From: Gallionellaceae bacterium
GTDB taxonomy: Bacteria > Pseudomonadota > Gammaproteobacteria > Burkholderiales > Gallionellaceae
Assembly (NCBI GenBank): GCA_037140475.1
Contig: JBAXEJ010000004.1
Location: 1,599 to 65,598 of the forward strand
Direction: 5' to 3'
Length of the DNA stretch: 64,000 nucleotides
Made by a program: the position numbers and the translations under genes. The notes beneath the pieces are model-generated. The model searched no databases and had not been told where the DNA came from. It worked only from the letters and a program-made list of their open reading frames with translations. This document shows positions 9,263-57,699 of the stretch, one piece after another. The stretch's first letter is position 1; each line of letters begins with the position of its first letter.

Positions 9263-9342
9263 AAGAATGTAGCCAAAACACTTAAGGGCGTGAACATAAT
9301 CACTGCCCCCTTCTTTGCGATACGCAAGCTGCTTGCCAATAA

Positions 9343-9798
9343 TTAGGGACGAATATACGCGTAACCCTCTTTTTGTTTATTCATGATCTCAACCACGCCG
9401 GCCGGCACATAACCAATTGTTGTCATCATGTCTGCTTTGCTTAGCTTTTGCGCCTTCATGGTATTTTCACAAGCCACCACTTTTACTCCAGCGGTTAGCG
9501 CTTCATCAATACGGCTCGCGACCGCCGATTCAAATTTGAGCATGCCAATTCCTGGGCCATAGACCACAATTTCAACATCGACGTTTTTCACACCCAATTC
9601 TTGCTGTACATTTTTTGCATTATTAAGTGCCAAATTCCATTTTTTAGCATCATCATCGCTCACCTGAAATACCACCTGTGCACGAGCATTAGTGGATTTT
9701 TCTGCGGGCTTATCTGCGGCTTGAACGCCGAATGAAGTCAAAGCACATATTAGAATCGCTACCTTGTAGATTGCTTTGACGAAATTAGATGTTGTCAT
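9343..9798 (-). CDS. DsrE/DsrF-like family protein with signal peptide
   Basis: 151 aa with a Sec-type signal (AILICALTSFGVQA-AD). The fold-level call rests on the VVFQVSDDD…VVACENTM pattern of DsrE-like proteins. Confidence 0.65.
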   Translation of the reverse strand: MTTSNFVKAIYKVAILICALTSFGVQAADKPAEKSTNARAQVVFQVSDDDAKKWNLALNNAKNVQQELGVKNVDVEIVVYGPGIGMLKFESAVASRIDEALTAGVKVVACENTMKAQKLSKADMMTTIGYVPAGVVEIMNKQKEGYAYIRP

Positions 9799-10045
9799 TA
9801 TTTTTTCCTAAAATTAGTTAAAGTGGGCACTGCAAAACTGTTCTGTTTGCTGCATTTGTTGAATCAATCACAATTCACCTGCTCGATTGAAACGGTAGGA
9901 AAGATAACTGCAAGTAAGTCCTATGAACAATTAGGCTAAACCCTAAGGTTGTCGAGCCTTCACAACCCTCCCGGCAAGAGGGTTGCTTCCAAAACAGAAC
10001 CACATGTGATTTGCCCCATTGCCGTGCATATTGGCAGCACATCCA

Positions 10046-11011
10046 TTACAACCAGCCAGAACGCCTAAATCGATAGTAAAGATAAGCGCAAGTAGCCCCA
10101 ATTAGAAACAAGGCCAACGGATAGCCGAAGCTCCATTTCAATTCGGGCATATTTTCAAAGTTCATTCCCCACACACCAACAAACGCAGTTGCAACAGCAA
10201 AAATCCCTGCCCATGCCGCAAGACGTTTATTTACTTCGTTTTGCTCGATAGACACGGTCGACTGGCAAACCAAAATTGCGGTCGTAATGGTCTCACGGAT
10301 ATTTTCGATAGAGGCGTTAATGCGAGTCAGATGGTCATGCACATCCCGAAAATATTCTTGCGTATTAGCACATACAGGCGGCACGCGCCCGCCGTGGAGC
10401 TTTCCTGTGGTTTCCATTAATGGGACAACCGCGTGCTTGAGTAAAACAACTTTCCGTTTAAGTTCATACAGCATTGAAATATTGGCAAGCGCCGTGCCTT
10501 TATCAAAGAGATTCTCTTCAATTTTTTCTAATTGCGACTCAAGGTCTTCCACCACCGGAAAATAGCGATCGACCACCTCATCCATTAGCGCATAAAACAC
10601 AAAGCCCGCCCCAAGTTGCAATAATTCCGGCTGGCGCTCGCAACGTTCGCGTACGCCAAGAAATTGCAAGTTACTGCGATTGCGAATCGACAAAACGAAA
10701 TTACGCCCGACAAAAATACTCACCTCGCCCACGACAATTTCTGTCCCGACCACCTCGACTAAGTGCATCGCGACAAAAAGCGTATCGTCATATTCTTCGA
10801 GTTTTGGACGCTGATGACCATGACGTGCATCTTCAATCGCTAAATCATGCAGCCCAAATTCTTCCTGCATTTTGTTTAATTCGATATCAGTTGTGTCGCG
10901 TAGCGCTACCCAAACAAAGCAATCTGGTTGCTGTAGATAGTCACTAATTTGTTCAACAGGAAGATCGGCGAGTTTGATGCCGTTTTTATAGGCTACGCAG
11001 TTAATCAACAT
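10046..11011 (-). CDS. corA: CorA magnesium/cobalt transporter
   Basis: 321 aa with two C-terminal TM helices and the signature GMN motif (VWGMNFENMPE). Confidence 0.93.
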   Translation of the reverse strand: MLINCVAYKNGIKLADLPVEQISDYLQQPDCFVWVALRDTTDIELNKMQEEFGLHDLAIEDARHGHQRPKLEEYDDTLFVAMHLVEVVGTEIVVGEVSIFVGRNFVLSIRNRSNLQFLGVRERCERQPELLQLGAGFVFYALMDEVVDRYFPVVEDLESQLEKIEENLFDKGTALANISMLYELKRKVVLLKHAVVPLMETTGKLHGGRVPPVCANTQEYFRDVHDHLTRINASIENIRETITTAILVCQSTVSIEQNEVNKRLAAWAGIFAVATAFVGVWGMNFENMPELKWSFGYPLALFLIGATCAYLYYRFRRSGWL

Positions 11012-11053
11012 AGGGGGTTCAATTAACTCAATTTAATCATGCTATTAAAAAAT

Positions 11054-12724
11054 CTATGGCTGATAGCCTGGAATTTTGCTGATGTCTACTTCGTCAATCT
11101 GCGAAGGATCTAGGAATTTTTTCGCGTAGTTTAAATACACTTTTTCTCGAATAAACAAATCAAATAACTCAGGATCAACGTGCCCATTTTCTTTGAAGTT
11201 ACCCAAAATTCTTAGCGACTCGGTCAGTGTTTTTCCATCTTTGTACGGCCGATCTTTGGCAGTGAGCGCTTCAAAAATATCGGCGATACCCATCATGCGC
11301 GCCTGCACCGACATCTGATCGCGAGTTAATCCACGTGGATAGCCTTTGCCATCCATGCGTTCGTGATGCCCTCCAGCAAACTCGGGAACATTTTTCAAAT
11401 GGCGTGGCCACGGCAAAGATTCCAACATTTTAATCGTGACATCAATGTGATGATTAATGATGCCGCGTTCTGCTGCCGTGAGTGTGCCCGCACGAATCGT
11501 CAAGTTACTCACTTCATCTTCACTCAGAAAATTAGCTTGCTGGCCGACTTCATTGATCCATTGATGTTGCGCAATGGCTCGCACTCGATCCTGGTCCGCA
11601 TCACTCATTTTTTCTGAGCCTAAATTGCTCTCGCGCAAAAAAACTCGTTCATCTTCAAGTTGAACTAGAAGCGCAGCGCATTCTTTGCGTTTTATTTCTA
11701 TTGTCGCGACATCCCCTTTCGCTGCGATTTCTGCCTGAAGAAAATTAATTTCCGCATCCCGTTTAAGCACCTCAAAGCGCGTATCGAGCAAATGGATGCG
11801 ATCAAAGATGGTTTGCAGCTTGGTAGATTTATCAACCACATGAACAGGTGTCGTGATTTTGCCGCAGTCATGCAACAGGGCTGCAATTTTGAGTTCGTAT
11901 TTTTCTTTTTCGGTCATGACAAAGTTTTGCAATGACGCACCCGGCTTTGCCTGAGTAATCGCCTCTGCCAACATCATGGTAAGTGCTGGCACACGTGCGC
12001 AATGGCCCCCGGTGTAAGGAGATTTATCGTCAATCGCGGTATTGATGAGACTAATAAACGACTCAAATAACTCTTCCAACTGTTGAATCAAGCGGCGATT
12101 ACTCAGCGCAATGGCGGCCTGAGAAGCGAGCGACTCGAGCAATTGCTGATCGTCTTGGCTAAACTGCCTAACTTCCTTTGTTACCGGATCAAGCGAGTTA
12201 ATTAATTGCAAAACCCCAATAATTTCTTGCTCATGATCGCGCATCGGCACGGTTAGAAACGAGCGCGAGCGATACCCCGTTTTTGCATCGAATTTTTTCG
12301 TGCCAGAGAAGTCGAAGCCCTCAGCCAAATAGGCGTCTTCGATATTAATAGTTTCACCACGCAGTGCTGAATAAGACACCACCATCGCTAAGTTTGGCTG
12401 GCCATTGACATAAAGCTGGATCGGATAAAAAGAGATTTTCTCTCCTGTAGTCCCCCCCATTTGAATCTTTAAAGAGTCATTGCGCAGAATTTCGAAGGTC
12501 AAAACTTTCTTTTCCGGATCGACCAGATAGAGCGTTCCAGCATCCGCATTGGTGATCTTTTTGGCTGCCAATAAAATATCTTCAAGTAGCTTGTCGATAT
12601 TTTTTTCGTTTGAAAGTGCCGCACCAATCTCATTTAAATCGCGCAAACGGGCCAACAAGCCCTCTAGCGTTGATAGCGGCGCTTGCGGTTGATCAACTCC
12701 GGTCTTTAGATTGGTAGCTTCCAT
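11054..12724 (-). CDS. GAF domain / HD-GYP phosphodiesterase
   Basis: N-terminal GAF (…IIGVLQLINS…). HD-GYP catalytic motifs LHDCGK and HHERMDGKGYPRG. Confidence 0.88.
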   Translation of the reverse strand: MEATNLKTGVDQPQAPLSTLEGLLARLRDLNEIGAALSNEKNIDKLLEDILLAAKKITNADAGTLYLVDPEKKVLTFEILRNDSLKIQMGGTTGEKISFYPIQLYVNGQPNLAMVVSYSALRGETINIEDAYLAEGFDFSGTKKFDAKTGYRSRSFLTVPMRDHEQEIIGVLQLINSLDPVTKEVRQFSQDDQQLLESLASQAAIALSNRRLIQQLEELFESFISLINTAIDDKSPYTGGHCARVPALTMMLAEAITQAKPGASLQNFVMTEKEKYELKIAALLHDCGKITTPVHVVDKSTKLQTIFDRIHLLDTRFEVLKRDAEINFLQAEIAAKGDVATIEIKRKECAALLVQLEDERVFLRESNLGSEKMSDADQDRVRAIAQHQWINEVGQQANFLSEDEVSNLTIRAGTLTAAERGIINHHIDVTIKMLESLPWPRHLKNVPEFAGGHHERMDGKGYPRGLTRDQMSVQARMMGIADIFEALTAKDRPYKDGKTLTESLRILGNFKENGHVDPELFDLFIREKVYLNYAKKFLDPSQIDEVDISKIPGYQP

Positions 12725-12734
12725 CGCAGGAGGA

Positions 12735-15122
12735 TTACTTAATGCAGACAGAGCGAACTTGATGAATATCAGTAATGCCCAACAAAACCTTTTCGATACC
12801 GTCTTGCTTCAGGGTGCGCATCCCCTCTTCTAACGCGATCGCAAATAATTCGGCAACCCGCGCGTGTTCTTGAATGCCTTTTTTAATCGGGTCAGTTCCA
12901 ATCAGCAATTCGTGCAAACCGACACGCCCACGATAGCCCGTACCAGAACATTTGTCGCAACCCACATGGTCGTACAAGGTAATCTGCCCCTTGTCGTCCC
13001 CAAACAATTTAACCCATTCTGCGTACTGCGCTTTGTAGGCGGCATTAGGGTCTTTCTTCCAACCTTCAGTGGTCAATAACTCGGCGCCATATTCAACCAG
13101 TAGTGCCTTAATTTCTTCTTGCGAAGCAATGTGTGGTTTTTTGCAGTCTTTGCATAAGCGCTTAGCAAGACGCTGCGCCAAAATACCCAATAACGCATCG
13201 GCAAAGTTAAACGGATCCATACCCATATCGAGCAAACGACTAATCGACTCTGGCGCACTATTGGTGTGCAAGGTGGCAAATACTAAGTGGCCCGTAAGCG
13301 AGGCCTCAATGCCGGTAGATACGGTTTCTTTGTCACGCATCTCACCGACCATAATCACATCTGGGTCGGCACGCAAAAATGCGCGCATGACCGTGGCAAA
13401 ATCAAGCCCTGCCTTTTTGTTAATCTGTACTTGGCGCAGCCCCTTTTGCGTAATCTCAACAGGATCTTCTGCTGTCCAGATTTTCGTCTCCGGGTTATTA
13501 ATGTGCTTCAAGATGGAGTGCAGAGTAGTGGTTTTACCCGAGCCGGTTGGACCACACACAAAGAACAAGCCATAAGGTTTGCTGACCGTTGTTTTGACTA
13601 ATTCCAAATTGCGTACCGAGAAGCCCATGTTGTCGAGCGGGATCGGCTCACCTGACGCCAGAATACGCATCACCACATCTTCAACGCCACCCTGCGATGG
13701 AATAGTTGCCACACGCAACTCGATATCTAACGGACCAAATTTTTTAAATTTAATTTTGCCGTCTTGCGGTTTCCGTTTTTCAGAAATATCTAAATCACAC
13801 ATGATCTTGAGTCGCGTAACCAAGGCATTGCGATAGGTCGAAGGAACCTCAATGTAGTTGAGCAAGGAGCCGTCTTTACGTAACCGAACCCCGGTTTTAC
13901 CCTTGCCCGGCATCGGCTCGATATGAATATCGGATGCGCCCATCTTGTAGGCATCCACGATAATCTTATTCACCAACTTGACCAACTCGTTATCCGCAGC
14001 CGCACTAACGTCTTCTTGACTAAGCGCACTGGATTCTTCCTCATCCGATCCAAGTGAAGTGAGTAGGTCATCCATGGAGCCCATGTCTTCCATGCTGCCA
14101 GTAGTCTCTGAACTACTGCTGCCACCGTAAAACAGATCAAGCGTGGCCTTAAATTCACGTTGCGGGCAGACACGATAAATCAGCCGATGCTTAGGAAAGA
14201 TGTTGTTTACAACGCGCGAGGCTTGAATTCGTTCAGGGTCGGTGGTGAGAATAATGAGCCCATCTGAAGAGTCATCAATCGGCACCCAGTGGCTACTCTC
14301 CACGTATTCGCGGCGTAGATTTTTAAGTAACTCACCCGGTTTAATACGGTCAGATTTGTACGGCTCATAGGGCACACCAAAAAAGCTGGATAGCGCCTTA
14401 CCTAATGCCTCTGTTTTTACTTGAAACTCATCAATCAGCACATCTTCAACATCAACGCCCTTGCGCCGTGCGGTACGGGTGGCCAATTCAAACTCTGCCG
14501 CCGACATCACTGCATCGGCCACCAAATAATCATATTTAGTTTTGACTATTCCCGCTTGCTGCTGACGCTGACGTAAGGCTACTGCAAGCGTCTGTGACAG
14601 CTCACGCACGCCTTCCTCCACCAACTCAGGAAAGGGAATGCCAGCCTTGTTGTTAATAACCTGAATAACGCCGATTAACTCGCCGGAAGTTGTTTCTAGG
14701 ATGGGCGCAACCAACATTTGCTTGGTGCGATAACCGGTGCGTTTATCCACGTCTTGCAAAAAGCGCAAAGTTGCGCTGAATGAAGTCAGCTCATGTTCGT
14801 CGTACACATCTTTAATATTGAGCAGCTTTTTATTGAACGCTGCAAAACCGGCGATACTTTGTTCTGCAATCGGAAGCTTGAGATCTTTAAAAGAATTTAG
14901 TCCCGTTTTAACTTTAGAAATTAACGAAGCTTTATCTTCTGCAACCACATAAACAGTTAAACGATCAGCATTAAAAAGATTGCAAATGTCCTTGCTGACA
15001 TCCAACATAATTTCGTCGATATTATTCGTCGCGTGAATCTTGTTGGTAACTTGGTTCAGATTTTTTGTGAACTCCAGCTGTGCACCAATTTCATTCACAT
15101 TGCCTTGCACCACATTATTCAT
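12735..15122 (-). CDS. GspE/PilB/MshE-family secretion-type ATPase with N-terminal GAF domain
   Basis: Contains a GAF domain (…ELIGVIQVINNK…) and a T2SSE_N/MshEN-like segment (LVADAVMSAAEFELATRTARRKGVDVEDVLIDE). An acidic Ser/Thr-rich linker follows. ATPase motifs are Walker A GPTGSGKTTT, Walker B DPDVIMVGEMRD and His box GHLVFATLHTN. Tetracysteine motif CKDC…CDKCSGTGYRGR. Confidence 0.9.
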   Translation of the reverse strand: MNNVVQGNVNEIGAQLEFTKNLNQVTNKIHATNNIDEIMLDVSKDICNLFNADRLTVYVVAEDKASLISKVKTGLNSFKDLKLPIAEQSIAGFAAFNKKLLNIKDVYDEHELTSFSATLRFLQDVDKRTGYRTKQMLVAPILETTSGELIGVIQVINNKAGIPFPELVEEGVRELSQTLAVALRQRQQQAGIVKTKYDYLVADAVMSAAEFELATRTARRKGVDVEDVLIDEFQVKTEALGKALSSFFGVPYEPYKSDRIKPGELLKNLRREYVESSHWVPIDDSSDGLIILTTDPERIQASRVVNNIFPKHRLIYRVCPQREFKATLDLFYGGSSSSETTGSMEDMGSMDDLLTSLGSDEEESSALSQEDVSAAADNELVKLVNKIIVDAYKMGASDIHIEPMPGKGKTGVRLRKDGSLLNYIEVPSTYRNALVTRLKIMCDLDISEKRKPQDGKIKFKKFGPLDIELRVATIPSQGGVEDVVMRILASGEPIPLDNMGFSVRNLELVKTTVSKPYGLFFVCGPTGSGKTTTLHSILKHINNPETKIWTAEDPVEITQKGLRQVQINKKAGLDFATVMRAFLRADPDVIMVGEMRDKETVSTGIEASLTGHLVFATLHTNSAPESISRLLDMGMDPFNFADALLGILAQRLAKRLCKDCKKPHIASQEEIKALLVEYGAELLTTEGWKKDPNAAYKAQYAEWVKLFGDDKGQITLYDHVGCDKCSGTGYRGRVGLHELLIGTDPIKKGIQEHARVAELFAIALEEGMRTLKQDGIEKVLLGITDIHQVRSVCIK

Positions 15123-15141
15123 AACTATTCCGACTTTCCTT

Positions 15142-16227
15142 TTATTGCTGCTCTGACTTTGGAATAGACCAAAGTCCGTTTTCTAACACGTTCACTTTGT
15201 AACCCGCTTGCGCCAAAATAAAAGCGGCGGCGGCACTACGGCGACCACTCTGGCAATAGGCAATATAAGGTACATCTTTACTTAACGCGCCAACCGCATT
15301 GCGGATATCGTTTAGCGGCACATTAATCGCCCCGGGTAGTTTGTCAAAACGGTACTCTGGAGGATGTCGCACGTCTAACCAAACAGCCCCCGTCGCCACT
15401 TCTTTTTTGGCCTCGGCATAGCTAATTTTATGCAACAGAGGTTCTTGCATCAGCTCAAGAAAGTCTTGCTTCTTGAGTCTAAGCAGGACTCCATTACTTC
15501 TCATGGTCACGGTCGCATTGCGTTTTGAATTTGAGATGAGCGCCTCTTCGCCGAATACATCGCCGGCTTTAAGTTCGGCCAACACCATCTGAGTTCCACC
15601 GACCATTCGCGTCACTTGAGCACGTCCGCTCTCAATCAAATAGTAGTAATCACCCTCACCCCCTTCATGGATGATGACTTCTTTATCCCACACCGCCACC
15701 ACTTCGATGCGTTCTAGCAGCATGCCAATGTTGGCTGAGGGCAAATGGGCAAATGGGCTGTTATGCAGATTTTCAGCACTAAACATGCCCGAATTTAATA
15801 ATCGCTTAACCACCGTATCCGCGTTTTTTTTCGCCTGAGGTGCTTTGCTTTCATCGTGATAGGAAAACTGATCCCAGGTAATCATCTGATCGAGCAGCTC
15901 ATCATCCACTCGTAATAGCTGAATGCGAGTGAGCGCCTTGGCTGAATTAATATTGGGCTGGCGCTTGCCAATAGGATGGCGAGCCCACTCAGAGTCTGCA
16001 CACATAACCACATTATTGCCATCAGCATAATTAATTTCGAGCTCGCCTCTCACCAGATAGACTGACTGTCCTTGCAACGAACGGCCCGCGAATGGGTCTT
16101 GCCCCTGTGCAATAGTTTCCAAATGACAATACTCAAGCAACTCTCTTAGCCGCGAAGGACCAAATGACGAGATGGGCTCTAAGGCTGCAAGCACTCGAAT
16201 ATCTAAAATATCATGCATACGACTCAA
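15142..16227 (-). CDS. tandem cyclic-nucleotide-binding domains fused to a rhodanese domain
   Basis: CAP_ED-like segment (GDYYYLIESGRAQV…FGEEALISNSKRNATV) and C-terminal rhodanese with active-site loop CQSGRRS. Confidence 0.8.
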   Translation of the reverse strand: MSRMHDILDIRVLAALEPISSFGPSRLRELLEYCHLETIAQGQDPFAGRSLQGQSVYLVRGELEINYADGNNVVMCADSEWARHPIGKRQPNINSAKALTRIQLLRVDDELLDQMITWDQFSYHDESKAPQAKKNADTVVKRLLNSGMFSAENLHNSPFAHLPSANIGMLLERIEVVAVWDKEVIIHEGGEGDYYYLIESGRAQVTRMVGGTQMVLAELKAGDVFGEEALISNSKRNATVTMRSNGVLLRLKKQDFLELMQEPLLHKISYAEAKKEVATGAVWLDVRHPPEYRFDKLPGAINVPLNDIRNAVGALSKDVPYIAYCQSGRRSAAAAFILAQAGYKVNVLENGLWSIPKSEQQ

Positions 16228-16239
16228 TTTATCCTTGTG

Positions 16240-17004
16240 TTAAAACTCGAACTCTTGTCCGTTTTGGAGCATTTTAGGAATAAAGCCAACGACGCATTCA
16301 CTAATTTCCTGCATCGTCAACTCCACCTCACCTGGTTTTAAATGCGTGATATAAATTTGCGGATTACGTTTGAGCTTAACGATGTCTTTAGCCAACAGGC
16401 TTGGACAAAAATGTTTAGACATCAGTGCTAAATCCAACTCAGCATTTGAGAATGCGGTTTCCACGATTAGGTATTGCAAATTTTCAATACTATTCAAGGT
16501 GTCCCACAGTGCAGAACACACCGAGGTGTCGCCGCTAAACGCTAAACTCGCCACTCCGCTATCCAATAAAAATCCAACTGCAGGCACAACGTGGTTAGCA
16601 GGTATTGCGGTAACCTTACGTCCCTGCAAATCAACAGTTTTGCCTAGCTCTATCGCCTCATAACGCAAACAAGGCTGTTGCGCATTAGGGATCACGCTGA
16701 AGTCAGGCCAGATCGACCAATTAAAAATATGCTGCTTAAGAGTGGCGATGGTTTCTGCAGTTGCGTGAACAGTTAGCGGTTTATCTCTCATAGCCCCAAC
16801 GCTATCAACCAGCAAAGGGATACACGCCACATGGTCCAAGTGGGAATGGGTGACAAAAACATGGTCGATCAAAATCATCTCAGCCAAACTTAAATCACCC
16901 ACCCCGGTTCCTGCATCAATCAATATATCGTGATCGAGCAACATCGAAGTCGTGCGCAAGTTTCCACCTATTCCGCCACTGCAACCTAGAATTCTTAACT
17001 TCAT
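16240..17004 (-). CDS. class-II 3',5'-cyclic-nucleotide phosphodiesterase (metallo-beta-lactamase fold)
   Basis: 254 aa. MKLRILGCSGG N-terminus and THSHLDH metal motif, typical of class-II cAMP phosphodiesterases. Confidence 0.75.
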   Translation of the reverse strand: MKLRILGCSGGIGGNLRTTSMLLDHDILIDAGTGVGDLSLAEMILIDHVFVTHSHLDHVACIPLLVDSVGAMRDKPLTVHATAETIATLKQHIFNWSIWPDFSVIPNAQQPCLRYEAIELGKTVDLQGRKVTAIPANHVVPAVGFLLDSGVASLAFSGDTSVCSALWDTLNSIENLQYLIVETAFSNAELDLALMSKHFCPSLLAKDIVKLKRNPQIYITHLKPGEVELTMQEISECVVGFIPKMLQNGQEFEF

Positions 17005-17057
17005 CGTTGAACCATCCCTGGCCGATTAAATTGCTAACTTAATATGTAGTTAGTAAT

Positions 17058-19277
17058 TTATTTTGTTTTAAATACAAATACGCCATCCCACTCACTACCT
17101 GGCGGATTCTGACGGAAGTAAACAACACGTTCCGCATAGACTTGATACAGCTTTTCTTGCGGAGACATTTTTTGCAAATTGAATAACTGCAACTCAGCCT
17201 GATCCCATTCTTGTTTGCGATAGGATCGTAGTGCTTGATGAAACAACTTCATTTCTTCCAAGGTATCTTTTTCGAGTTGTCCTGTCAGACCCATCGGCTG
17301 AAAAATCGCAACGGGCTTATCCTTACCTTTGACCCGCACCAAATCGAGCTCGCGATACACAAAGTCAGGTGCAACCTCCTTGGTCTTTTCACCGACAACT
17401 ATGCCAACACCATATTCTTTGGTAATGCCTTCCAATCGCGAAGCCAAGTTCACTGCATCGCCCATTACGGTATAGGCGACACGCACCTCGGAGCCCATGT
17501 TGCCTACACTCACCATTCCAGTATTGATACCCACACCAATATGTATGGGAGGCCAACCACGTTCTTTAAAGTGTGGTTGCAACGCCTCTAATGTTTGCAA
17601 CATTTCCAAGCCCGCCACAATCGAATGATGCGCATGATTTGCATCCGGCAGCGGAGCCCCCCAAAACGCCATGATGCAGTCGCCCATATATTTGTCGATG
17701 GTGCCACGATGCTTATAAACAACGCGTGACAGCGGTGTCAAAAACTCATTCATCAACAATGAAAGCTCTTTAGGATCTAGCCCTTCTGAAATAGTGGTAA
17801 AGCCTCGCACGTCAGAAAATAGAGTGGTCATCTCACGCCCCTCTCCTTCCATTGAAACGCTTTCTGGACGCTCACTCATTTCGCTGACCACTTCTTTCGG
17901 CACGTACTGTCCAAACAGATTAGTAATTTGCCGCTTAGTGCGCGATTCCACGAAATAACCATAGGACATATTAAGTGCAAAAAGTGCAACGATCATCATT
18001 AGGCCGCCGCCCAGGGGTAACGCAATATTGCCGTATTGCCACACGCCGCCGTTAATGACCACTGTCGCAATCAATATAACAACTGTCACCAAAGTATTCT
18101 GCAAGGGGTTGAGCAAAGGCAGTATAAAAGCCATGGCAATCCCCACCAGGAGTATGAGCAAAACCTCCACGCCAAGGACATATGGCGGGTTAGATTTAAT
18201 CGATTGATTGAGAATGCCACTAATCATGTTCGCGTGAATCTCAACTCCCGGGAATACTTCATCCACAGGTGTTGCTCGCAAATCCAATAAACCTGGCGCG
18301 GTGGTTCCGATCAAAATTATTTTATTTTTTAAATCATCTAGCGCCACGCGCTCTTTCAAGACGTCTACTACCGAAATATATTTAAAGGTATTACGTCCAC
18401 CACTATAGGGCACTAGCGCATCTACCTTTGCATCCACAGGAATACTCAACTTACCCTGCGAGGTAGCTAGCTCTAACCACTCCAAGCCAGCATAATCTTT
18501 TGCATTTGCGCCCTCGCCATAGCCAGGAATTAGTTGCGGTGAACCCAAGGCCGTACGCACAACCGCCAGCGACAATGACTCATAGTAAGCGCCTGCATAT
18601 TCCACCACCATGGGAATGCGCCTAACAATGCCGTCGAAATCCACCTGCGGATTAAAGTGCCCTGCTGATGCGGCATTCGCTTGAAACTCGGAAAGATTCG
18701 CACCATAGCCCTCCCATTTCGAAAAATTAATGGGGCGACCTTTAAATGAACCCGCTTCAAAAACTGGCGCTGGCAAAGCTCCCGAAACATCTTTTGCAGA
18801 ATTGAAGTAATACCCCAAAACAATATTTCTCTGCTTCATCTTATTGACGAACAGATTGTCATATTCAAGTTGAGGTTTGATCTGAGATAAAACTGACTGA
18901 AACTGAGCGACATCTTTGAGTTGATTTTTACCCAATTCCTGCAAAACTTTAAGACCGGAACTACTATCTCTTTCGGCAAATACGACGTCGAAGCCTACGA
19001 CTGCAACATTATATTTGTCGAATAGCTTGTCCATCAGTGAAGCAAGCTTGTCACGACCCCAAGGCCAACGCCCTTCTTCTTTTAGACTTTTCTCATCAAT
19101 ATCTAAAATAACGATACGATCATCGCTCACGTGTGGCAAAGTCAGACGCAAGCGCGTGTCATACAATTTTGCTTCTACAAAACTAACGAAACCAAGCTGA
19201 TAAAACCTTGCTGCGTTGCCGAGGAAGAGAAAGACGATAGCGAGGCCGAGTGCAATTAACAGTGCATGCTTTTTCAC
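17058..19277 (-). CDS. CHASE2 sensor / class-III adenylate-guanylate cyclase
   Basis: N-terminal TM and CHASE2 signature (EEGRWPWGRD), followed by a TM cluster. C-terminal cyclase domain (TTLFSDVRGFTTISE…GDCIMAFWGAP…MGDAVNLASRLE). Confidence 0.88.
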   Translation of the reverse strand: MKKHALLIALGLAIVFLFLGNAARFYQLGFVSFVEAKLYDTRLRLTLPHVSDDRIVILDIDEKSLKEEGRWPWGRDKLASLMDKLFDKYNVAVVGFDVVFAERDSSSGLKVLQELGKNQLKDVAQFQSVLSQIKPQLEYDNLFVNKMKQRNIVLGYYFNSAKDVSGALPAPVFEAGSFKGRPINFSKWEGYGANLSEFQANAASAGHFNPQVDFDGIVRRIPMVVEYAGAYYESLSLAVVRTALGSPQLIPGYGEGANAKDYAGLEWLELATSQGKLSIPVDAKVDALVPYSGGRNTFKYISVVDVLKERVALDDLKNKIILIGTTAPGLLDLRATPVDEVFPGVEIHANMISGILNQSIKSNPPYVLGVEVLLILLVGIAMAFILPLLNPLQNTLVTVVILIATVVINGGVWQYGNIALPLGGGLMMIVALFALNMSYGYFVESRTKRQITNLFGQYVPKEVVSEMSERPESVSMEGEGREMTTLFSDVRGFTTISEGLDPKELSLLMNEFLTPLSRVVYKHRGTIDKYMGDCIMAFWGAPLPDANHAHHSIVAGLEMLQTLEALQPHFKERGWPPIHIGVGINTGMVSVGNMGSEVRVAYTVMGDAVNLASRLEGITKEYGVGIVVGEKTKEVAPDFVYRELDLVRVKGKDKPVAIFQPMGLTGQLEKDTLEEMKLFHQALRSYRKQEWDQAELQLFNLQKMSPQEKLYQVYAERVVYFRQNPPGSEWDGVFVFKTK

Positions 19278-19328
19278 TCAAACCTCGTCATATGAATTAA
19301 AAAATGTTTGATCGCTCAATGTACTAAA

Positions 19329-20075
19329 TCAAGCTTTAAAATAAAACTCCATTTTCACGCCGGCCAACTCAATGATGTCATGATCATTAAGTTGGTGCGG
19401 TTGCTCTCCGGTCGAGGCTCCATTCACCATCGGGAATTTTGCACCTTCAACATGAGTAATAAAGAAACCATGCGGACGCTTAGCCAGTACAGCAACTTGA
19501 ACGCCGGGCTTACCTAAAGTAGTCAAACTTTTGACCAACTCAAGCTCTTTACCTGCATTGGGTCCATTCAAAATTTGCACTGCGGCAACCTGACTTACGG
19601 CCGCTGGCGCTGCTGCCGCAACCTCTCCATCAGTGCCGGCAACAAATTTCCCCGTCACATCCCCTACCCCAACATTAGTTTGAGTGCGAGTAAAATCGCT
19701 CGTCTCGGCCCCTGCTTGGGAAGTCTTAACCGGCCTGCTCAACACCATCGTTTTTTCAAAATCAGCTGACGGAGCTTGCGCTGGCTGATCATTCAAATAT
19801 TTCAGCTTATATTTTCCAATTTCAATGAGGTCATTATTTTGCAGGAAGTGCTTTTTAGTCGCTGTTCCATTTACTGCAAGACCATTTGTACTTTCCAAAT
19901 CCTCTAGAAAGGAGTCATTCAGAATCGTAATGATCGCCGCGTGCTCGCTACTAATCGCTAAGTTGTCGATCACAATGTCGTTATGCGGTTTACGACCGAT
20001 TGTCGTGCGCTCTTTATTTAGCACATACTCTTTCAGCACCACGCCATCCATGCTGAGTATCAATTTAGCCGGCAT
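19329..20075 (-). CDS. FHA domain protein (canonical N-terminal FHA plus C-terminal FHA-like domain)
   Basis: TIGRKPHNDIVIDNLAISSEHAAI…STNGLAVNG is a canonical FHA. The C-terminal half (TTLGKPGVQV…MVNG…DIIELAG) looks like a degenerate second FHA. Confidence 0.85.
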   Translation of the reverse strand: MPAKLILSMDGVVLKEYVLNKERTTIGRKPHNDIVIDNLAISSEHAAIITILNDSFLEDLESTNGLAVNGTATKKHFLQNNDLIEIGKYKLKYLNDQPAQAPSADFEKTMVLSRPVKTSQAGAETSDFTRTQTNVGVGDVTGKFVAGTDGEVAAAAPAAVSQVAAVQILNGPNAGKELELVKSLTTLGKPGVQVAVLAKRPHGFFITHVEGAKFPMVNGASTGEQPHQLNDHDIIELAGVKMEFYFKA

Positions 20076-20092
20076 ATCATCAATCCCCGTAG

Positions 20093-20965
20093 TTAATTCT
20101 TAAACCAAGACAATAATTTTTGCACCCATCCACTCGGGGTTGCAAATTTACCATTTACTTTCACTAAGATAACGGAGACATTATCGCGTCCGCCGTTGTC
20201 GTTTGCCATTTGTATCAGCTGAGTTGCGGCTAAGGGCAAGTTAGCCCGCAACATTTGCAATGTCGAACCAATATCTTCGTCTTCGACCATATCATTCAAT
20301 CCATCAGAGCAGAGTAAATAAACATCGCCCACCTGCAAATCATGAATATGGATTTCAACATCTACGTCATCATCAATACCCACGGCACGTGTGACTAAGT
20401 TTTTATTCTTAGAAGTACGCGCATCTTGTTTACTGATCATGCCGCTATCAATTTGCTCTTGCAGCAAAGAGTGATCGCGCGTGATGGTTTCAAATGTTTC
20501 ACCTCGCAGGCGGTACATTCGAGAATCACCCACATGCGCAACTGCCACCCGATCATCATAAAACAACGCCGCCACTATCGTTGTTCCCATGCCGGAATAT
20601 TGCGGCTGGCTTTCTGCGGCATGAAAAATAGAGGAGTTCGCTTTTTGCACATTATCGCGCAACAAAACTACCGCTTCATCCTCGCCGCTAAAAGCATCTT
20701 GCTCTTCAGGCTTTACGCTTTCCAAACGATGCTTAATCTCAGTTGCCACAACTGAAACCGCAATGCCGCTGGCCACCTCGCCAGCATTGTAGCCCCCCAT
20801 ACCGTCTGCCAAAACCACCAGGCCTGACGGCAAATCAAACGCCACACTATCTTCGTTGTGAGACCTGACCATTCCTGGATGGGTCTGACTTACCATCTCT
20901 AGCGCGTCTTGTATTTTCACACTCCACCCCTGCAATTCAATATTTAGTGCAAAGTCGCCGCACAC
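20093..20965 (-). CDS. PP2C-family Ser/Thr protein phosphatase
   Basis: Motifs RSHNEDS, LADGMGG, CSDGL and GGRDNVS. The start is uncertain: the track ATG overlaps the kinase stop by 22 nt, and a GTG at 20920 is an alternative. Confidence 0.88.
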   Translation of the reverse strand: MCGDFALNIELQGWSVKIQDALEMVSQTHPGMVRSHNEDSVAFDLPSGLVVLADGMGGYNAGEVASGIAVSVVATEIKHRLESVKPEEQDAFSGEDEAVVLLRDNVQKANSSIFHAAESQPQYSGMGTTIVAALFYDDRVAVAHVGDSRMYRLRGETFETITRDHSLLQEQIDSGMISKQDARTSKNKNLVTRAVGIDDDVDVEIHIHDLQVGDVYLLCSDGLNDMVEDEDIGSTLQMLRANLPLAATQLIQMANDNGGRDNVSVILVKVNGKFATPSGWVQKLLSWFKN

Positions 20966-23475
20966 TGGCGTATCGCCTCTGCCATTTCCTGTCCGGTTTG
21001 AAAACGATCTTCTACTTTTTTTGCCAGCGCCTTATTGATTACGTCAACGACACAGGCTGGCACATCTGGGCTAATCGTACGAATATCTGCATGCGGCTCA
21101 TTCGCAATTCGGAACATCAGTTGCGCCATTGAGTCTCCCTCAAAGGGTAGCTTACCACACACCATTTGATACAAACTCGCTCCCAAGGAGAACAAGTCTG
21201 ACTGCCCCTCAATTTTGGTACCCGCCAATTGCTCTGGTGACATATAGGAGGGCGTCCCCAATACCATGCCCGTTTTGGTTTTGGACGAATCAGTGATTCG
21301 TGCAATACCAAAATCGGTCACCTTAGCCGTGTCACTTTCCATGTCATACATGATATTTGCCGGTTTAATGTCGCGGTGCACCACATGGAGCGTGTGCGCA
21401 TAGCCAAGCGCATCAGCTACGCGTGCAATGATACTCAACACTTTAGGCAAAGGCAGCAAATTATCCCGCTTGGTGTAGGGGACGAGATCCTTCCCTTTTA
21501 AGAACTCCATCGCTATGTAAGCTAGATCGTGCTCTTCGCCCGCATCGTACATCGTCACGATATTCGGATGATTTAAACGGCCCGCAGTTTCTGCCTCGCG
21601 GAAGAAGCGCGCCTTAACATCTTCCAGCTCATCCGCATCGAACTCTTGCGACAAATTCATGGTTTTGATGGCCACCACGCGGCTAATTTTGGGATCTTTG
21701 CCGAGATAGACCACGCCCATCGCGCCCTTGCCCAGCTCTTTTTCGATTTCGTAACGACCCAACATTGGTTTACTGACGCCGGCCTTGTCCAACATCATCG
21801 TGCTCGCATTACTCTTGCCCGATGCCCCTCCCAAAATGACCGTTTCAGACATTGTCTTAGCTTGACTCATGCGCTGCTCTAAATCACGGAATTTTGGGTT
21901 GTAGTCAGTCATGTATTTAAACACTGACTCCGCCTTATTAAACTGGCGCTTGCGCTCAAAGTCTAAACCCAAGTTATACAACACATCCATCAAGCTATCG
22001 TCAATAGGCACTTTGCGCAGCTTATCAAATGCAATATCCAGTTGACCTTGCCCTTGAAAAGCCAACCCCAACATGCGGTTACTTTCAGCGGAGTCGGCAT
22101 CCGATTTAATCTTGCCTTGCTCAGTCACTAAGAAGCGTTTGGTCGTCAACAATAAATGGCCCACCAACAACAAAGCCGCCGGCAACATCAACTGTATCCA
22201 AAGTGCTTGCGTGGTCATCAACACAAAGTGACTAGTCAAAAGAGAAACAAACAAAACGACCGTCACAATTGCTCCAATACCAGCACTCAGCCGGGGCAAT
22301 AGTAAAATGAGATACAACGCGATCAGCAAAAAGATACCTGTTTGCGCCCAAAACGCCCAGCTCGGCACCACAAAGAAATCCTGTTTGAGAATGCTCGAAA
22401 TAGAATGCGCCAAAGTAACCACAGGCGACATCCCGGCAGAAACTGGCGTCACCTGTAGTGCGCCGACACCCGCAGCTGTTGCACCGATGAGCACAATTTT
22501 GTCGCGATATTTATCGGCAGGAATTTTTCCCGACAGCACATCGTAGAACGAATCCACTTGAAACGCGGGCTTCCCGTCACGGTCGCTATAAAAATAAGTG
22601 TGCATGCGCGACAAGGGGTCCGTCACGATATTTAAGCTACCAATCTTCACACTCTGCCCAAGATTAACTTGAATATCTTTTGGCTCAAGATTCAAACTTT
22701 TGGCCGCCAACATCAATGACAACGAAGGGTAAAACTGATCGAAATAATTCAACACGAGCGGCTCAGTGCGAATACCCCCATCGATATCCGGTGTGACATT
22801 GAGGTGGCCGATAGCAACTGCCAATGAGCCCAAAATCGGAATAGGCACCTGTGCGCCGTTGCTCTGGATGGGGAACATCCCCGGAGTGCCTTCTTTGATA
22901 TTCGCCAAACCGTTTTTCAACACATACTCTGGCAGAGGGTTACTTGGCCTGCCTTGCGGCTCGCCTAATTCGAAATACATGCCTAACAACACCGAATTCG
23001 CCTTGGCCATACTTTCAGCCAATTTCATGTCGTTATCGAGGTGTGACATCGCTTCCAGCAAGATCAGATTCAACTGTTCCCACTCGACCGGATTAGATTC
23101 TTTAATCGTTGAAGTTGCGAGAACAGTCGCCAGTTTATTGACATATTCCAAGCCTGCATCAACTTGCGGCTCAGAGAAAAACACGGTATTACCGATGACT
23201 TTGGCATGACCACTCGCCAAAATATCTAACAACTTACCTTGGGTCTCACGTGGCCAAGGCCAGCGTCCAAGGTTGGCAATGCTGTCATCGTCAATCGCGA
23301 TGATGGCGATTTTGTCACTCGCCACACGAGAAGAAGCGCGCACGCCAATGTCATAAGCCTTGCGCTCAAGGCTTTGCATCAAATCAGAGTTCGCCGTCGC
23401 CAAAAACACCAATGCAACTAGTACGCCAACAAACCAATCGGCTTTGAAGAACGTCACTTTTTTGATGTTAGCCAT
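20944..23475 (-). CDS. CHASE2 sensor / TPR-like linker / Hanks-type Ser/Thr protein kinase
   Basis: CHASE2 signature (NLGRWPWPRE) and a TM cluster. Kinase motifs GKGAMGVVY, VAIK, HRDIKPANI, DFGIA and GTPSYMSPE. Confidence 0.9.
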   Translation of the reverse strand: MANIKKVTFFKADWFVGVLVALVFLATANSDLMQSLERKAYDIGVRASSRVASDKIAIIAIDDDSIANLGRWPWPRETQGKLLDILASGHAKVIGNTVFFSEPQVDAGLEYVNKLATVLATSTIKESNPVEWEQLNLILLEAMSHLDNDMKLAESMAKANSVLLGMYFELGEPQGRPSNPLPEYVLKNGLANIKEGTPGMFPIQSNGAQVPIPILGSLAVAIGHLNVTPDIDGGIRTEPLVLNYFDQFYPSLSLMLAAKSLNLEPKDIQVNLGQSVKIGSLNIVTDPLSRMHTYFYSDRDGKPAFQVDSFYDVLSGKIPADKYRDKIVLIGATAAGVGALQVTPVSAGMSPVVTLAHSISSILKQDFFVVPSWAFWAQTGIFLLIALYLILLLPRLSAGIGAIVTVVLFVSLLTSHFVLMTTQALWIQLMLPAALLLVGHLLLTTKRFLVTEQGKIKSDADSAESNRMLGLAFQGQGQLDIAFDKLRKVPIDDSLMDVLYNLGLDFERKRQFNKAESVFKYMTDYNPKFRDLEQRMSQAKTMSETVILGGASGKSNASTMMLDKAGVSKPMLGRYEIEKELGKGAMGVVYLGKDPKISRVVAIKTMNLSQEFDADELEDVKARFFREAETAGRLNHPNIVTMYDAGEEHDLAYIAMEFLKGKDLVPYTKRDNLLPLPKVLSIIARVADALGYAHTLHVVHRDIKPANIMYDMESDTAKVTDFGIARITDSSKTKTGMVLGTPSYMSPEQLAGTKIEGQSDLFSLGASLYQMVCGKLPFEGDSMAQLMFRIANEPHADIRTISPDVPACVVDVINKALAKKVEDRFQTGQEMAEAIRQCAATLH

Positions 23476-23575
23476 GCCCCACCTTTGTCATTCTGTTTTC
23501 CTCTTCGCCAGATACTAAAACATTTTTCAATGGCAAACTATAGCGATCTGATTTAATTGAATTATCTAGATATTT

Positions 23576-24001
23576 TTATTTGACGAGCAAAACAGGGACT
23601 TTTGCCAAATGAACAACTTTACTTGCTACAGAACCTAACAACAGTGTGGATAAAGACGTTTCACCATGTGCGCTCATCACAATTTGCTCAACCTGATGCT
23701 CTTGAGCGTATTGCACCACGCCCTCAGCAGGCGAGCCCACACTTACATGATAGGTGTAAGCCAAGCCAACCTTGTCTAGCTTAGCTCGCGCCTGAGTGAG
23801 TGCCACAGCCCCCTGCTCACGATAATAATCATTGATCGTGTCTTGCCTGATGAATAACTTAACGTTACCCGACGCCAGTTTCCACTGCACATTGAGCAAG
23901 CAAATTTGCGGTGGCTCTTTGAATTGAGCTGCATTAGCAATCACATAATCTACCGCACGCTCAGCATTGATGGAGCCATCTACTGGAATCAATATTTTCA
24001 T
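23576..24001 (-). CDS. universal stress protein (UspA family)
   Basis: 141 aa. MKILIPVDGS N-terminus and C-terminal G..SLSTLLLGSVASKVVH.A..PVLLV motif. Confidence 0.85.
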   Translation of the reverse strand: MKILIPVDGSINAERAVDYVIANAAQFKEPPQICLLNVQWKLASGNVKLFIRQDTINDYYREQGAVALTQARAKLDKVGLAYTYHVSVGSPAEGVVQYAQEHQVEQIVMSAHGETSLSTLLLGSVASKVVHLAKVPVLLVK

Positions 24002-24015
24002 TTCACTTTCCTCAC

Positions 24016-24759
24016 TTAGGCTTGATCGCCCTGTTTAGCAGGCACTTGCTCATCCACCAGATCGATCACCTCAGCTGTCGCAACTTTGCGCATAGCCAAC
24101 CATTTGCCGACCCCCAATACCAACAGCGCACAGAATCCTGGAACGATCCAATGCAAAGCATGTTGCGCTTCGACCCAAGGCTTAAATAATGCTTCGCCCA
24201 GCAACATCTCACCGGCAACGTATCCTAACAACGCTCCTCCAGCGAAAACAATAAATGGGAAACGGTCGATGAGTTTCAATACCAACTGACTACTCCACGC
24301 GATCATCGGTATGCTAATCAGCAAACCGAACACCAACAGCATCACATTGCCATGCGCCGCTCCCGCCACACCCAGCACGTTATCGAGGCTCATCACAAAG
24401 TCTGCAATGATGATGGTTTTTATCGCGCCCCACAGATGCGTATCTGCCTTGATATTACCTTCGCTGTGCTCATCGTCTGGCAGTAGCAATTTGATACCAA
24501 TCCAGAGTAGTAGCAACGCACCCACCAACTTCAAATAAGGCAACGCTAGCAAGCTCACAGCAAAGAAAGTCAATACGATACGCAAACCAATCGCACCACC
24601 CACGCCGTACAGAATGCCCTTCTTACGTTGCGCTGCAGGCAAGTTGCGACAAGCCAACGCAATCACCACTGCGTTATCCCCAGATAACAGCAAGTCGATC
24701 ATGATGATCTTAAATACATCTACCCAAAATTGGGCAGAGCTCAGCATTTCCAACATCAC
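24016..24759 (-). CDS. TerC/YjbE-family integral membrane protein
   Basis: Seven-TM-type protein with duplicated DNAVVIA / DNVLGVA motifs. Confidence 0.85.
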   Translation of the reverse strand: MMLEMLSSAQFWVDVFKIIMIDLLLSGDNAVVIALACRNLPAAQRKKGILYGVGGAIGLRIVLTFFAVSLLALPYLKLVGALLLLWIGIKLLLPDDEHSEGNIKADTHLWGAIKTIIIADFVMSLDNVLGVAGAAHGNVMLLVFGLLISIPMIAWSSQLVLKLIDRFPFIVFAGGALLGYVAGEMLLGEALFKPWVEAQHALHWIVPGFCALLVLGVGKWLAMRKVATAEVIDLVDEQVPAKQGDQA

Positions 24760-24760
24760 A

Positions 24761-40331: not shown

Positions 40332-40338
40332 TTTTTTC

Positions 40339-57669: not shown

Positions 57670-57699
57670 TTAATCGCTTTCGTTTTTGATATTTTTAAC

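Follow-up and report, generated by a model that had tools for sequence, protein, structure and literature searches.

Type IV pilus extension motors are controlled by cyclic di-GMP (c-di-GMP), through MshEN domains and through PilZ/FimX. Control of these motors by cyclic AMP (cAMP) is, to our knowledge, known only as an indirect effect exerted via transcription. In Pseudomonas, cAMP works on transcription via Vfr (PMC11656802). The stretch of DNA considered here is a 64-kb window of a Gallionellaceae metagenome-assembled genome (MAG; contig JBAXEJ010000004.1, positions 1,599 to 65,598). In it, a PilB-like ATPase that carries its own predicted sensor for a cyclic mononucleotide (cNMP) is co-encoded with enzymes predicted to make and to break that messenger, an arrangement that, if this reading is right, would amount to a direct post-translational cAMP input. 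The cluster, a module of seven to eight signalling genes, has been inherited vertically in Betaproteobacteria. We interpret it as a cAMP-gated, phosphothreonine (phospho-Thr)-modulated switch on the PilB-like motor and on a c-di-GMP phosphodiesterase, with type IVa pili as the output, and we hold this interpretation with belief and doubt in equal measure.

None of the parts of the module is without a known relative, and the control of extension ATPases by second messengers is itself well established. Like MshE of Vibrio cholerae, PilB of Myxococcus xanthus and PilF of Thermus, the ATPase has an N-terminal nucleotide-sensor region in front of a hexameric motor made of N2 and the C-terminal domain (CTD). 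It differs from all three in having an extra N-terminal GAF domain of the cNMP type and in the replacement of its MshEN ligand contacts, and from MshE and PilB in that its gene lies outside any pilBCD or msh operon. In this last respect it is like TfpB of Acinetobacter baylyi, a PilB-like ATPase encoded away from pilBCD, and it could likewise serve the same machine; however, the GAF-ATPase falls far below the TfpB cut-off, and we know of no GAF domain in TfpB and of no cNMP enzymes attached to it. The Pil-Chp/CyaB/CpdA/Vfr system of Pseudomonas aeruginosa has three things in common with the module: a membrane-anchored class IIIb adenylate cyclase, a phosphodiesterase dedicated to cAMP, and a connection with type IV pili. 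Here, in contrast, GAF domains that belong to the motor ATPase itself and to an HD-GYP enzyme are the predicted receptors; CHASE2 takes the place of the MASE2/Chp input, and the phosphodiesterase is of class II, with a metallo-β-lactamase fold, rather than CpdA. Finally, the module resembles PpkA/PppA/Fha1 of the H1 type VI secretion system (T6SS) in P. aeruginosa, by a functional analogy drawn from the literature: in both, the genes of a membrane-bound Hanks kinase whose sensor is extracytoplasmic, of a PP2C phosphatase and of an FHA adaptor are grouped next to a component of a secretion-type machine. In the window that component is a PilB-like ATPase, the kinase has CHASE2 as its sensor, and a second, degenerate FHA-like domain is present in the FHA protein. 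T6SS genes are absent from the window and from the related loci, although the kinase-phosphatase-FHA triad is present.

All open reading frames (ORFs) of the window and the junctions between them were read from the ORF table. The initial annotation had described nine closely packed minus-strand genes, and the coordinates of all nine (Table 1) and the junctions of -22, 17, 51, 53, 12, 19, 10 and 42 nt are exactly as it gave them. A Pfam search of the nine proteins bears out its domain calls as well, save for the second FHA domain and the second cyclic-nucleotide-binding (CNB) domain discussed below. The packing of the genes exceeds chance, and the same order recurs in 80 genomes. The overlap of 22 nt between the kinase and PP2C genes hinges on the choice of the longest ORF as the start. 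An alternative GTG start of the PP2C gene, at 20911 with AGGGG ahead of it, would turn the overlap into a gap of +32 nt; the orthologue in Sideroxydans lithotrophicus ES-1 is annotated as 274 aa with a gap of 47 nt, and the GTG is possibly the true start. Neither Rfam nor tRNA scans gave any match in the window or in the ES-1 locus.

Table 1. The cluster and its flanking genes in the window, in the order in which the minus strand is read, with the number of related loci that carry each gene. Denominators are the loci with enough sequence on the relevant side.
Feature	Coordinates (strand)	Pfam domains	Predicted product and role, with basis	Present in related loci
TerC	24016-24759 (-)	TerC	TerC (Pfam)	
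Usp	23576-24001 (-)	Usp	Usp (Pfam)	
Kinase	20944..23475 (-)	CHASE2 + Pkinase	CHASE2, transmembrane segments and Hanks-type Ser/Thr kinase, 843 aa; phospho-Thr writer (Pfam)	37/55, upstream of the ATPase
PP2C	20093..20965 (-)	PP2C_2/PP2C	Stp1-type Ser/Thr phosphatase; phospho-Thr eraser (NCBIfam, Pfam)	52/62
FHA protein	19329..20075 (-)	FHA	N-terminal FHA (24-87), Ser/Thr/Ala-rich linker, C-terminal FHA-like domain; phospho-Thr reader/adaptor	50/66
Cyclase	17058..19277 (-)	CHASE2 + Guanylate_cyc	CHASE2, transmembrane segments and class III (IIIb-type) nucleotide cyclase; cNMP writer (Pfam, PDB)	50/69
Phosphodiesterase	16240..17004 (-)	Lactamase_B_2/PDEase_II	Class II cyclic-nucleotide phosphodiesterase of metallo-β-lactamase fold; cNMP eraser (Pfam, PDB)	68/76, beside the ATPase
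CNB-rhodanese	15142..16227 (-)	cNMP_binding + Rhodanese	Divergent CNB-like N-half, canonical CNB (155-268), rhodanese with active-site Cys (CQSGRRS); optional cNMP reader	30/74
ATPase	12735..15122 (-)	GAF + MshEN + T2SSE	GAF (35-183), MshEN-like N1 (195-336), acidic linker, PilB/GspE-type hexameric ATPase core; module anchor gene (Pfam)	
HD-GYP protein	11054..12724 (-)	GAF + HD/HD_5	GAF and HD-GYP in PmGH-type architecture; c-di-GMP eraser (Pfam, PDB)	64/72, after the ATPase
CorA	10046..11011 (-)	CorA	Mg2+/Co2+ channel (NCBIfam corA, 204.8 against a cut-off of 200.75; GMN motif)	0/80
Seven-gene set				30/51
Eight-gene set				15/51

Relatives were collected in a scan with one genome per species, the window proteins being compared by tblastn. 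The resulting 80 loci, all betaproteobacterial in the traditional sense, span Gallionella, Sideroxydans, Nitrotoga, Nitrosomonas, Sulfuricella, Rhodocyclaceae, MAGs of Burkholderiales, Chitinimonas and Parachitinimonas. ATPase identity drops from 93% to 65% in step with taxonomy, and the order and orientation kinase-PP2C-FHA-cyclase-phosphodiesterase-(CNB-rhodanese)-ATPase-HD-GYP are kept over the whole of this range. The linkage across genera that had been proposed is therefore strongly kept in this neighbourhood survey, and the clusters are not freely broken up. The proposed extent of the unit, nine genes, does not stand: none of the 80 loci has the corA gene, which places CorA outside the module and leaves eight genes at most. 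In the window, corA sits where relatives have a pilin gene. The CNB-rhodanese gene is an optional member, and the phosphodiesterase and GAF-ATPase genes form the irreducible core, since Nitrosomonas keeps this pair without most of the other cluster genes. The initial annotation had also seen in the cluster a writer, an eraser and a reader for each of two currencies, phospho-Ser/Thr and a cyclic mononucleotide, as well as an eraser of HD-GYP type, and this holds well beyond the window, with catalytic motifs intact family-wide. Cultured carriers are S. lithotrophicus ES-1, Sideroxyarcus emersonii, Chitinimonas viridis, Parachitinimonas caeni and Nitrosomonas sp. Nm51, so the ideas set out below can be tested in cultured strains. 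ES-1, a type strain, has the order SucD-TerC-Usp-kinase-PP2C-FHA-cyclase-phosphodiesterase-CNB/rhodanese-ATPase-HD-GYP-pilin-TPR-FlhDC-MotAB, followed by two genes for methyl-accepting chemotaxis proteins.

The ATPase matches the Pfam T2SSE family (PF00437) with an E value of 1.9e-110 and 369.4 bits, against a cut-off of 24.9, over profile positions 4-368 of 370; the MshEN match, which also exceeds its cut-off, and the GAF match have E values of 1.5e-10 and 3.7e-8. The motor motifs are intact in the translation (Walker A GPTGSGKT, DPDVIMVGEMRD, TGHLVFATLHTN and CKDC...CDKC), and the Walker A, Asp, Walker B and His boxes as well as the tetracysteine zinc motif align to PilB and PilF. The closest proteins in the PDB are PilB of Myxococcus (M. 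xanthus, 1.7e-105) and of Geobacter and Thermus PilF, all ahead of GspE/EpsE. A variable insert of ~45 residues (666-712) lies between the two CxxC pairs, with a mean identity of 53% compared with 86% in the neighbouring CTD.

The GAF region of the ATPase has a mean identity of 71% across the 80 orthologues and matches Anabaena CyaB2 (1ykd, 1e-23) in the PDB, followed by the GAF-B domains of PDE2A and PDE10A. cNMP-binding GAF domains (CyaB1/2 and PDE2/5/6/10/11) are defined by an NKFDE-type motif. In the ATPase orthologues N157, K159 and F164 are invariant or nearly so, followed by xxxxEE in place of xxxDE. The GAF domain of the HD-GYP protein matches those of PDE5, CyaB2, PDE2A and PDE10A in the PDB and shares 29% identity with that of the ATPase (E 1e-12). 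Both domains appear to be of the cNMP-binding CyaB2/PDE2 type, a family resemblance from which ligand binding would be expected.

The c-di-GMP motif of MshEN domains consists of two 24-residue stretches, RLGxxL(V/I)xxG(I/F)(L/V)xxxxLxxxLxxQ, with 5 residues between them (PMC10519070, PMC7288161). In the adjoining MshEN-like four-helix region of the ATPase, the 24+5+24 spacing is unchanged and the core is still hydrophobic. The residues R, G3, G10 and Q, however, have given way to T, Y, A and A in motif 1 and to D, E, F and F in motif 2, replacements that hardly vary among the 80 orthologues (T/S-K-Y...A and D-[IVL]-E...F...F). Because the ligand-contact residues are lost family-wide, c-di-GMP is probably not a direct input on the motor. 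Binding of c-di-GMP to this domain is unlikely, and the domain may have been kept for another purpose. The GAF domain appears to have taken over from MshEN as the nucleotide sensor of the ATPase.

Full-length GAF-MshEN-T2SSE proteins are not confined to the 80 loci. An exhaustive search of 1.84 billion cluster representatives found them in dozens of 50%-identity clusters, down to ~36% identity, the distant ones being gammaproteobacterial (Methylococcales, Pseudohongiellaceae and Kangiellaceae). In a Kangiellaceae MAG (locus L086, 2138-14861), the GAF-ATPase gene is found near a REC-GGDEF gene, a CHASE2-cyclase gene and the gene of a stand-alone CNB protein; the search seed of this branch, P0239, is 36% identical to the window ATPase. 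This locus is an independent partial echo of the same wiring outside the Betaproteobacteria. Two loci of the Pseudohongiellaceae type (L085, 16380-17531, and L089, 15433-16566) encode a PilT-sized T2SSE-family ATPase of 377-383 aa 3-4 kb from an orphan GAF-ATPase gene, in a conserved synteny with prfC and an ornithine carbamoyltransferase gene.

The second predicted target, the HD-GYP protein, matches Pfam HD_5 (2.7e-40), GAF (5.6e-15) and HD (6.5e-10) and has the motifs LHDCGK and HHERMDGKGYP; HD and HHExxDGxGYP are present in 65 of 66 orthologues. Its best PDB match is PmGH (4mcw, 6.7e-35) and the second is V-cGAP3 (5z7c), and its predicted substrate is c-di-GMP or 3'3'-cyclic GMP-AMP. The enzyme is also predicted to be cNMP-gated, judging from its GAF domain. 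There is a precedent for such gating: Tlr0485 of Thermosynechococcus is cited by Galperin and Chou as a cAMP-activated GAF-HD-GYP protein (bioRxiv 10.1101/2021.11.05.467447) and is a direct precedent for cAMP turning on c-di-GMP hydrolysis via a GAF domain. The window protein has the same GAF-HD-GYP architecture as PmGH and Tlr0485, with its catalytic motifs intact; it differs in having an insert of ~100 residues and in being encoded beside a GAF-ATPase, a cyclase and a phosphodiesterase. The insert splits the HD-GYP domain at residues ~305-403, between the Pfam HD (239-305) and HD_5 (403-520) matches. A GAF-associated HD-GYP insert is described for Leptospira LIC_11189 and other response-regulator REC-GAF-HD-GYP proteins (PMC12943098), and the one in the window is similar.

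The phospho-Thr genes are complete in their catalytic parts. The kinase (Pfam CHASE2, 7e-52; Pkinase, 6.9e-54) has HRDIKPxN and DFG, with HRD and DFG present in all 42 orthologues, and the phosphatase reaches 247.8 bits against the NCBIfam model Stp1_PP2C_phos, above the cut-off of 230. The FHA protein had been described as carrying two FHA domains. Pfam finds one of them, at the N terminus (1.2e-17), and a TagH-type FHA model is among the NCBIfam matches; the C-terminal half, by contrast, is only FHA-like by profile-profile comparison. When the two halves are compared by hhalign, they match with 82% probability and E 1e-5, but the segment of the phospho-Thr-binding loop is missing from the alignment. 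The C-terminal half is highly conserved (mean column identity 77%). Its profile finds no FHA structure in the PDB, and nothing at all below E 0.1, so that the internal hhalign match is the sole basis for the label of a second FHA domain. Single-sequence AlphaFold2 models of the FHA protein and of the CNB-rhodanese protein have a mean predicted local distance difference test score of 34 and 43, respectively, and are unusable.

What the motor might act on is suggested by relatives. The initial annotation had noted a motor with no visible substrate machinery, which is true of the window, as it has no pilin, PilC/D, PilMNOPQ or Gsp genes, but not of relatives, most of which carry a type IVa pilin gene after the HD-GYP gene. 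Clustering of all ORFs of the 80 loci revealed one family that lies directly after the HD-GYP gene, on the same strand, in ~40 loci; it is type IV pilin (Pfam Pilin, PF00114, 3e-20; N_methyl, 1e-8). Among the 57 HD-GYP loci with at least 700 nt downstream, a pilin signature is found within 600 nt of the HD-GYP gene in 30 and within 10 kb in 41, with few exceptions on the strand of the cluster. Of 61 pilins, 48 have the type IVa leader of 7 residues. Thus, the motor has a likely substrate context that was lost in the window, where the lack of a pilin neighbour is a derived state. The major pilin gene alone is adjacent: no pilC, pilD or other pilus machinery lies within ±10 kb in any of the 80 loci, and no gsp genes lie near the ATPase gene. 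The adjacency of the ATPase would be incidental if its orthologues sat beside a complete pilus locus or type II secretion system (T2SS) locus elsewhere, and this argument fails, as they never do among the loci surveyed.

Several features of the pilin neighbourhood deserve description in their own right. Genes downstream of the pilin gene include Wzy_C O-antigen-ligase-like (TfpO/PglL-like) and TPR membrane proteins, which we take to resemble the TfpO/TfpW-type accessory genes found after pilA in Pseudomonas. In Parachitinimonas, Chitinimonas, and MAGs of Sterolibacteriaceae and Azonexaceae, prepilins of only 58-62 residues are encoded downstream of the cluster (L049, 14348-14530; L072, 14167-14349; also L065, L076 and L077); these are truncated pilins of the length of Geobacter PilA-N. 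In ES-1 (L082, 16827-22394), flhDC, motAB and two chemotaxis-protein genes directly follow the cluster and the pilin gene, so that pilus-related and flagellar control genes are contiguous. The genome paper on ES-1 and ES-2 (PMC3770913) describes PilMNOPQ, minor pilin clusters, PilT/PilU, a mannose-sensitive haemagglutinin (MSH) cluster and a separate T2SS cluster, which in ES-1 is Slit_0489-0506, all elsewhere in these genomes.

The cyclase would make the messenger on which this wiring depends. It matches Pfam CHASE2 (1.3e-59) and Guanylate_cyc (3.4e-21; 76.1 bits against a cut-off of 21.9) and has the metal-binding Asp residues of FSDVRGF and MGD. Its best PDB matches are adenylate cyclases, namely 6fht, P. 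aeruginosa CyaB (3r5g, 4e-36, the second-best) and CyaC (1wc0). The purine-specifying position, which is Glu in the guanylate cyclase Cya2, is occupied by Lys here (GTIDKYMGD), and the second specificity position holds Thr (AYTVMGD), as in CyaB; both residues align with those of CyaB. The Lys/Thr pair, in which Thr replaces Asp, marks class IIIb adenylate cyclases. Lys is found in 52 of 58 orthologues and Thr in at least 41, and the protein is predicted to be a class IIIb-type adenylate cyclase. The phosphodiesterase matches Pfam Lactamase_B_2 (1e-15) and PDEase_II (1.3e-11; 44.7 bits against a cut-off of 23.7), the latter over profile positions 84-146 of 340 only. Its metal motif is THSHLDH, HxHxDH is present in all 66 orthologues, and the best PDB match is yeast PDE1 (4ojv). 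The candidate third reader, the CNB-rhodanese protein, had been assigned two cNMP-binding domains. One is found by Pfam (cNMP_binding, 2.3e-21; Rhodanese, 3.7e-14) and matches the CNB domains of PKA/PKG in the PDB, whereas the N-terminal half is a divergent CNB-like domain seen by profile search only, which matches the CNB domains 9ya0 (E 1e-6) and 3mdp (E 2e-3); an hhalign comparison of the two halves is not significant (5% probability).

The messenger is probably cAMP, given the Lys/Thr pair, the adenylate-cyclase matches in the PDB, the CyaB2/PDE2-type GAF domains and the class II phosphodiesterase. We consider it improbable that the same architecture uses cGMP or another cyclic mononucleotide instead. 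Such a messenger would fit the GAF domain of the HD-GYP protein, which scores best against the cGMP-binding GAF-A domain of PDE5, and the Anti-Pycsar_Apyc1 Pfam match of the phosphodiesterase, which is weak in the window copy (L001) and present in the ES-1 orthologue. The closest cyclase structure family includes the guanylate cyclase Cya2, whose Glu-to-Lys variant is the adenylate cyclase 6fht, and the best structural relative of the phosphodiesterase, yeast PDE1, is dual-specific. However, the cyclase and most of its orthologues have Lys and not Glu, together with Thr, like CyaB and other IIIb adenylate cyclases, and the ATPase GAF matches Anabaena CyaB2, a cAMP binder, best by far.

Taken together, the module could work as follows. 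On an extracytoplasmic cue, a CHASE2-gated class IIIb adenylate cyclase would make cAMP, both cue and product being predicted, and the class II phosphodiesterase would remove it. cAMP would then be read by the related GAF domains on the ATPase and the HD-GYP enzyme, if these bind it as expected, with the CNB-rhodanese protein as a third reader where it is present. The CHASE2-Hanks kinase, PP2C and FHA protein might add a phospho-Thr layer, as PpkA/PppA/Fha1 do for T6SS, purely by analogy. As output, the module would act on how type IVa pili are assembled or on their dynamics, and c-di-GMP would fall locally. Type IVa pili are the likeliest output because the module lies directly upstream of a major pilin gene in most relatives, a gene that often has a sigma-54-like motif ahead of it and genes of pilin-glycosylation type behind it. 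A wider formulation, which we put forward only tentatively, is that GAF-PilB-like ATPases are a widespread and so far unrecognised class of secretion-type motor in Beta- and Gammaproteobacteria in which a cNMP-type GAF takes over the c-di-GMP-binding function of MshEN, that cAMP gates the extension of pili or other type IV filaments directly, at the post-translational level, and that the betaproteobacterial locus integrates cAMP, phospho-Thr and c-di-GMP from two CHASE2 sensors.

A pilus output of this kind has to be weighed against the reading, unlikely in our view but the one to be taken most seriously, that the module is real and the GAF-ATPase powers another type IV filament machine (MSH or T2SS) or acts mainly as a nucleotide-gated signalling ATPase, like M. 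xanthus PilB relaying to exopolysaccharide production. A number of observations count against the pilus switch, and several of them would suit this other output. Against the NCBIfam PilB model TIGR02538, the ATPase scores 480.5 bits in two stretches, partly because of the insert between the CxxC pairs, and does not reach the cut-off of 675.65. Nor does it reach that of GspE (TIGR02533; 444.6 bits, cut-off 630.25), and TfpB, the third-best model, gives 374 bits against a cut-off of 850. Its nearest non-GAF relatives are likewise below the PilB and GspE equivalog cut-offs, and the GAF-ATPase belongs, by its profile scores, to a separate PilB/GspE-like lineage. The distant gammaproteobacterial homologues are orphans amid housekeeping genes, with no pilus genes nearby; the Nitrosomonas loci have TerC-Usp-phosphodiesterase-ATPase only, and no pilin; and neither pilin nor PilC/D, PilMNOPQ or Gsp genes are found anywhere in the 64-kb window. 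Even where the pilin gene is present, it is probably transcribed on its own. In 32 of 61 cases, a sigma-54-type -24/-12 motif (TGGCAY-N4-5-YTGCW) precedes the pilin start codon by no more than 250 nt, typically by ~60-100 nt, and the ES-1 pilin gene has its own sigma-54-like motif (L082, 14190-14215) and a hairpin plus T-run terminator 3' of the gene, so that the adjacency could be inherited synteny and not coupling. Moreover, the acidic, Ser/Thr-rich ATPase linker (336-378) does not co-vary with the presence of the kinase, since a GSMDDLLTSL-like motif is kept in every lineage, kinase-less Nitrosomonas included. ES-1 has separate MSH and T2SS clusters (PMC3770913), and PilB is reported to act as a signalling protein (PMC5544727). 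On the other side, pilin adjacency is frequent and found across several families, and the ATPase still has the motor motifs, the tetracysteine and the N1/N2 layout typical of extension ATPases, which speaks for a functional motor docking onto a platform protein. Gallionella MAGs carry the cluster, and ES-2, a Gallionella, is reported to lack T2SS, which would weaken a T2SS role in particular, provided that ES-2 has the cluster too.

The cAMP-gated pilus switch also presupposes that the cluster is a functional unit. That the genes are independent signalling genes and chance neighbours is highly improbable. One could cite for it a promoter and terminator scan of window positions 9000-25000, in which counts were at or below shuffle expectation and signals did not rise above background, a result that is uninformative on operon structure; the unusual richness of Gallionellaceae genomes in signalling genes (PMC3770913); and the loss of single genes in some lineages. 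Yet order, orientation and short gaps persist across Gallionellaceae, Nitrosomonadaceae, Rhodocyclaceae, MAGs of Burkholderiales, Chitinimonas and Sulfuricella while the flanks change, and the functions fit together, both as cyclase, phosphodiesterase and GAF or CNB readers and as kinase, phosphatase and FHA. A Pycsar-type anti-phage system, made of a cyclase and cNMP-binding effectors, deserves scarcely any credence. PADLOC does match the cyclase domain to PycC (2.5e-29), the CNB domain to PycTIR/effector and the kinase domain to PD-T4-6, but these matches cover generic catalytic or binding domains, and there are none for the ATPase, HD-GYP, phosphodiesterase or FHA proteins. In place of a TIR, transmembrane or other effector, the CNB protein carries a rhodanese domain; the cluster itself is passed on vertically among housekeeping genes (sucCD, rml, trp) and not as part of a variable island. 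With PADLOC matches to generic domains only, we reject the defence reading.

If the cAMP-gated switch is correct, the module would be a hard-wired point of cross-talk from cAMP to c-di-GMP, and its FHA/kinase layer would be of a type known to date from type VI secretion. Its probable function is the control of surface behaviour that depends on pili, by a mechanism that has yet to be described. In the open-access full-text literature we found no description of a GAF domain on a PilB/GspE-type ATPase, of the loss of the MshEN ligand site there or of a cluster of several signalling currencies beside pilA. A 2024 review of PilB regulation nowhere mentions GAF, FHA or HD-GYP, and the ES-1/ES-2 genome paper (PMC3770913) does not mention the signalling cluster around the GAF-ATPase. 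The carriers are environmentally important iron oxidisers, ammonia oxidisers and wastewater Rhodocyclaceae, in whose lives attachment to surfaces, twitching and avoiding encrustation by minerals play a part.

The remaining genes of the window lie outside the conserved module. The TerC and Usp genes precede the cluster in Gallionellaceae, and the phosphodiesterase-ATPase pair in Nitrosomonas, but not in the Burkholderiales or Rhodocyclaceae loci; they probably reflect synteny rather than membership. At 7352-9262, on the plus strand and 1.8 kb past the cluster, an HDOD-REC-GGDEF protein is encoded that is a candidate c-di-GMP writer. It is not conserved beside the cluster in the other genomes, where a weak partial match is found in L002 alone.

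A second candidate enzyme for cross-talk from a cyclic mononucleotide to c-di-GMP is encoded at 43119-44300, on the minus strand. It is a cNMP_binding plus EAL protein with the architecture of Bd1971, a c-di-GMP phosphodiesterase that senses cAMP, and its gene adjoins those of a MASE3-PAS histidine kinase, a REC protein and a REC-PAS histidine kinase (38721-43049). Bd1971 resembles the cluster in that a cyclic mononucleotide gates the breakdown of c-di-GMP, but it does so with a CNB sensor and an EAL catalytic domain, and the CNB-EAL gene of the window stands outside the conserved cluster. Further along, at 57307-58095 on the minus strand, a MazF/PemK toxin gene adjoins a short gene for an S24-peptidase (LexA-like), which is an unusual partner for such a toxin.

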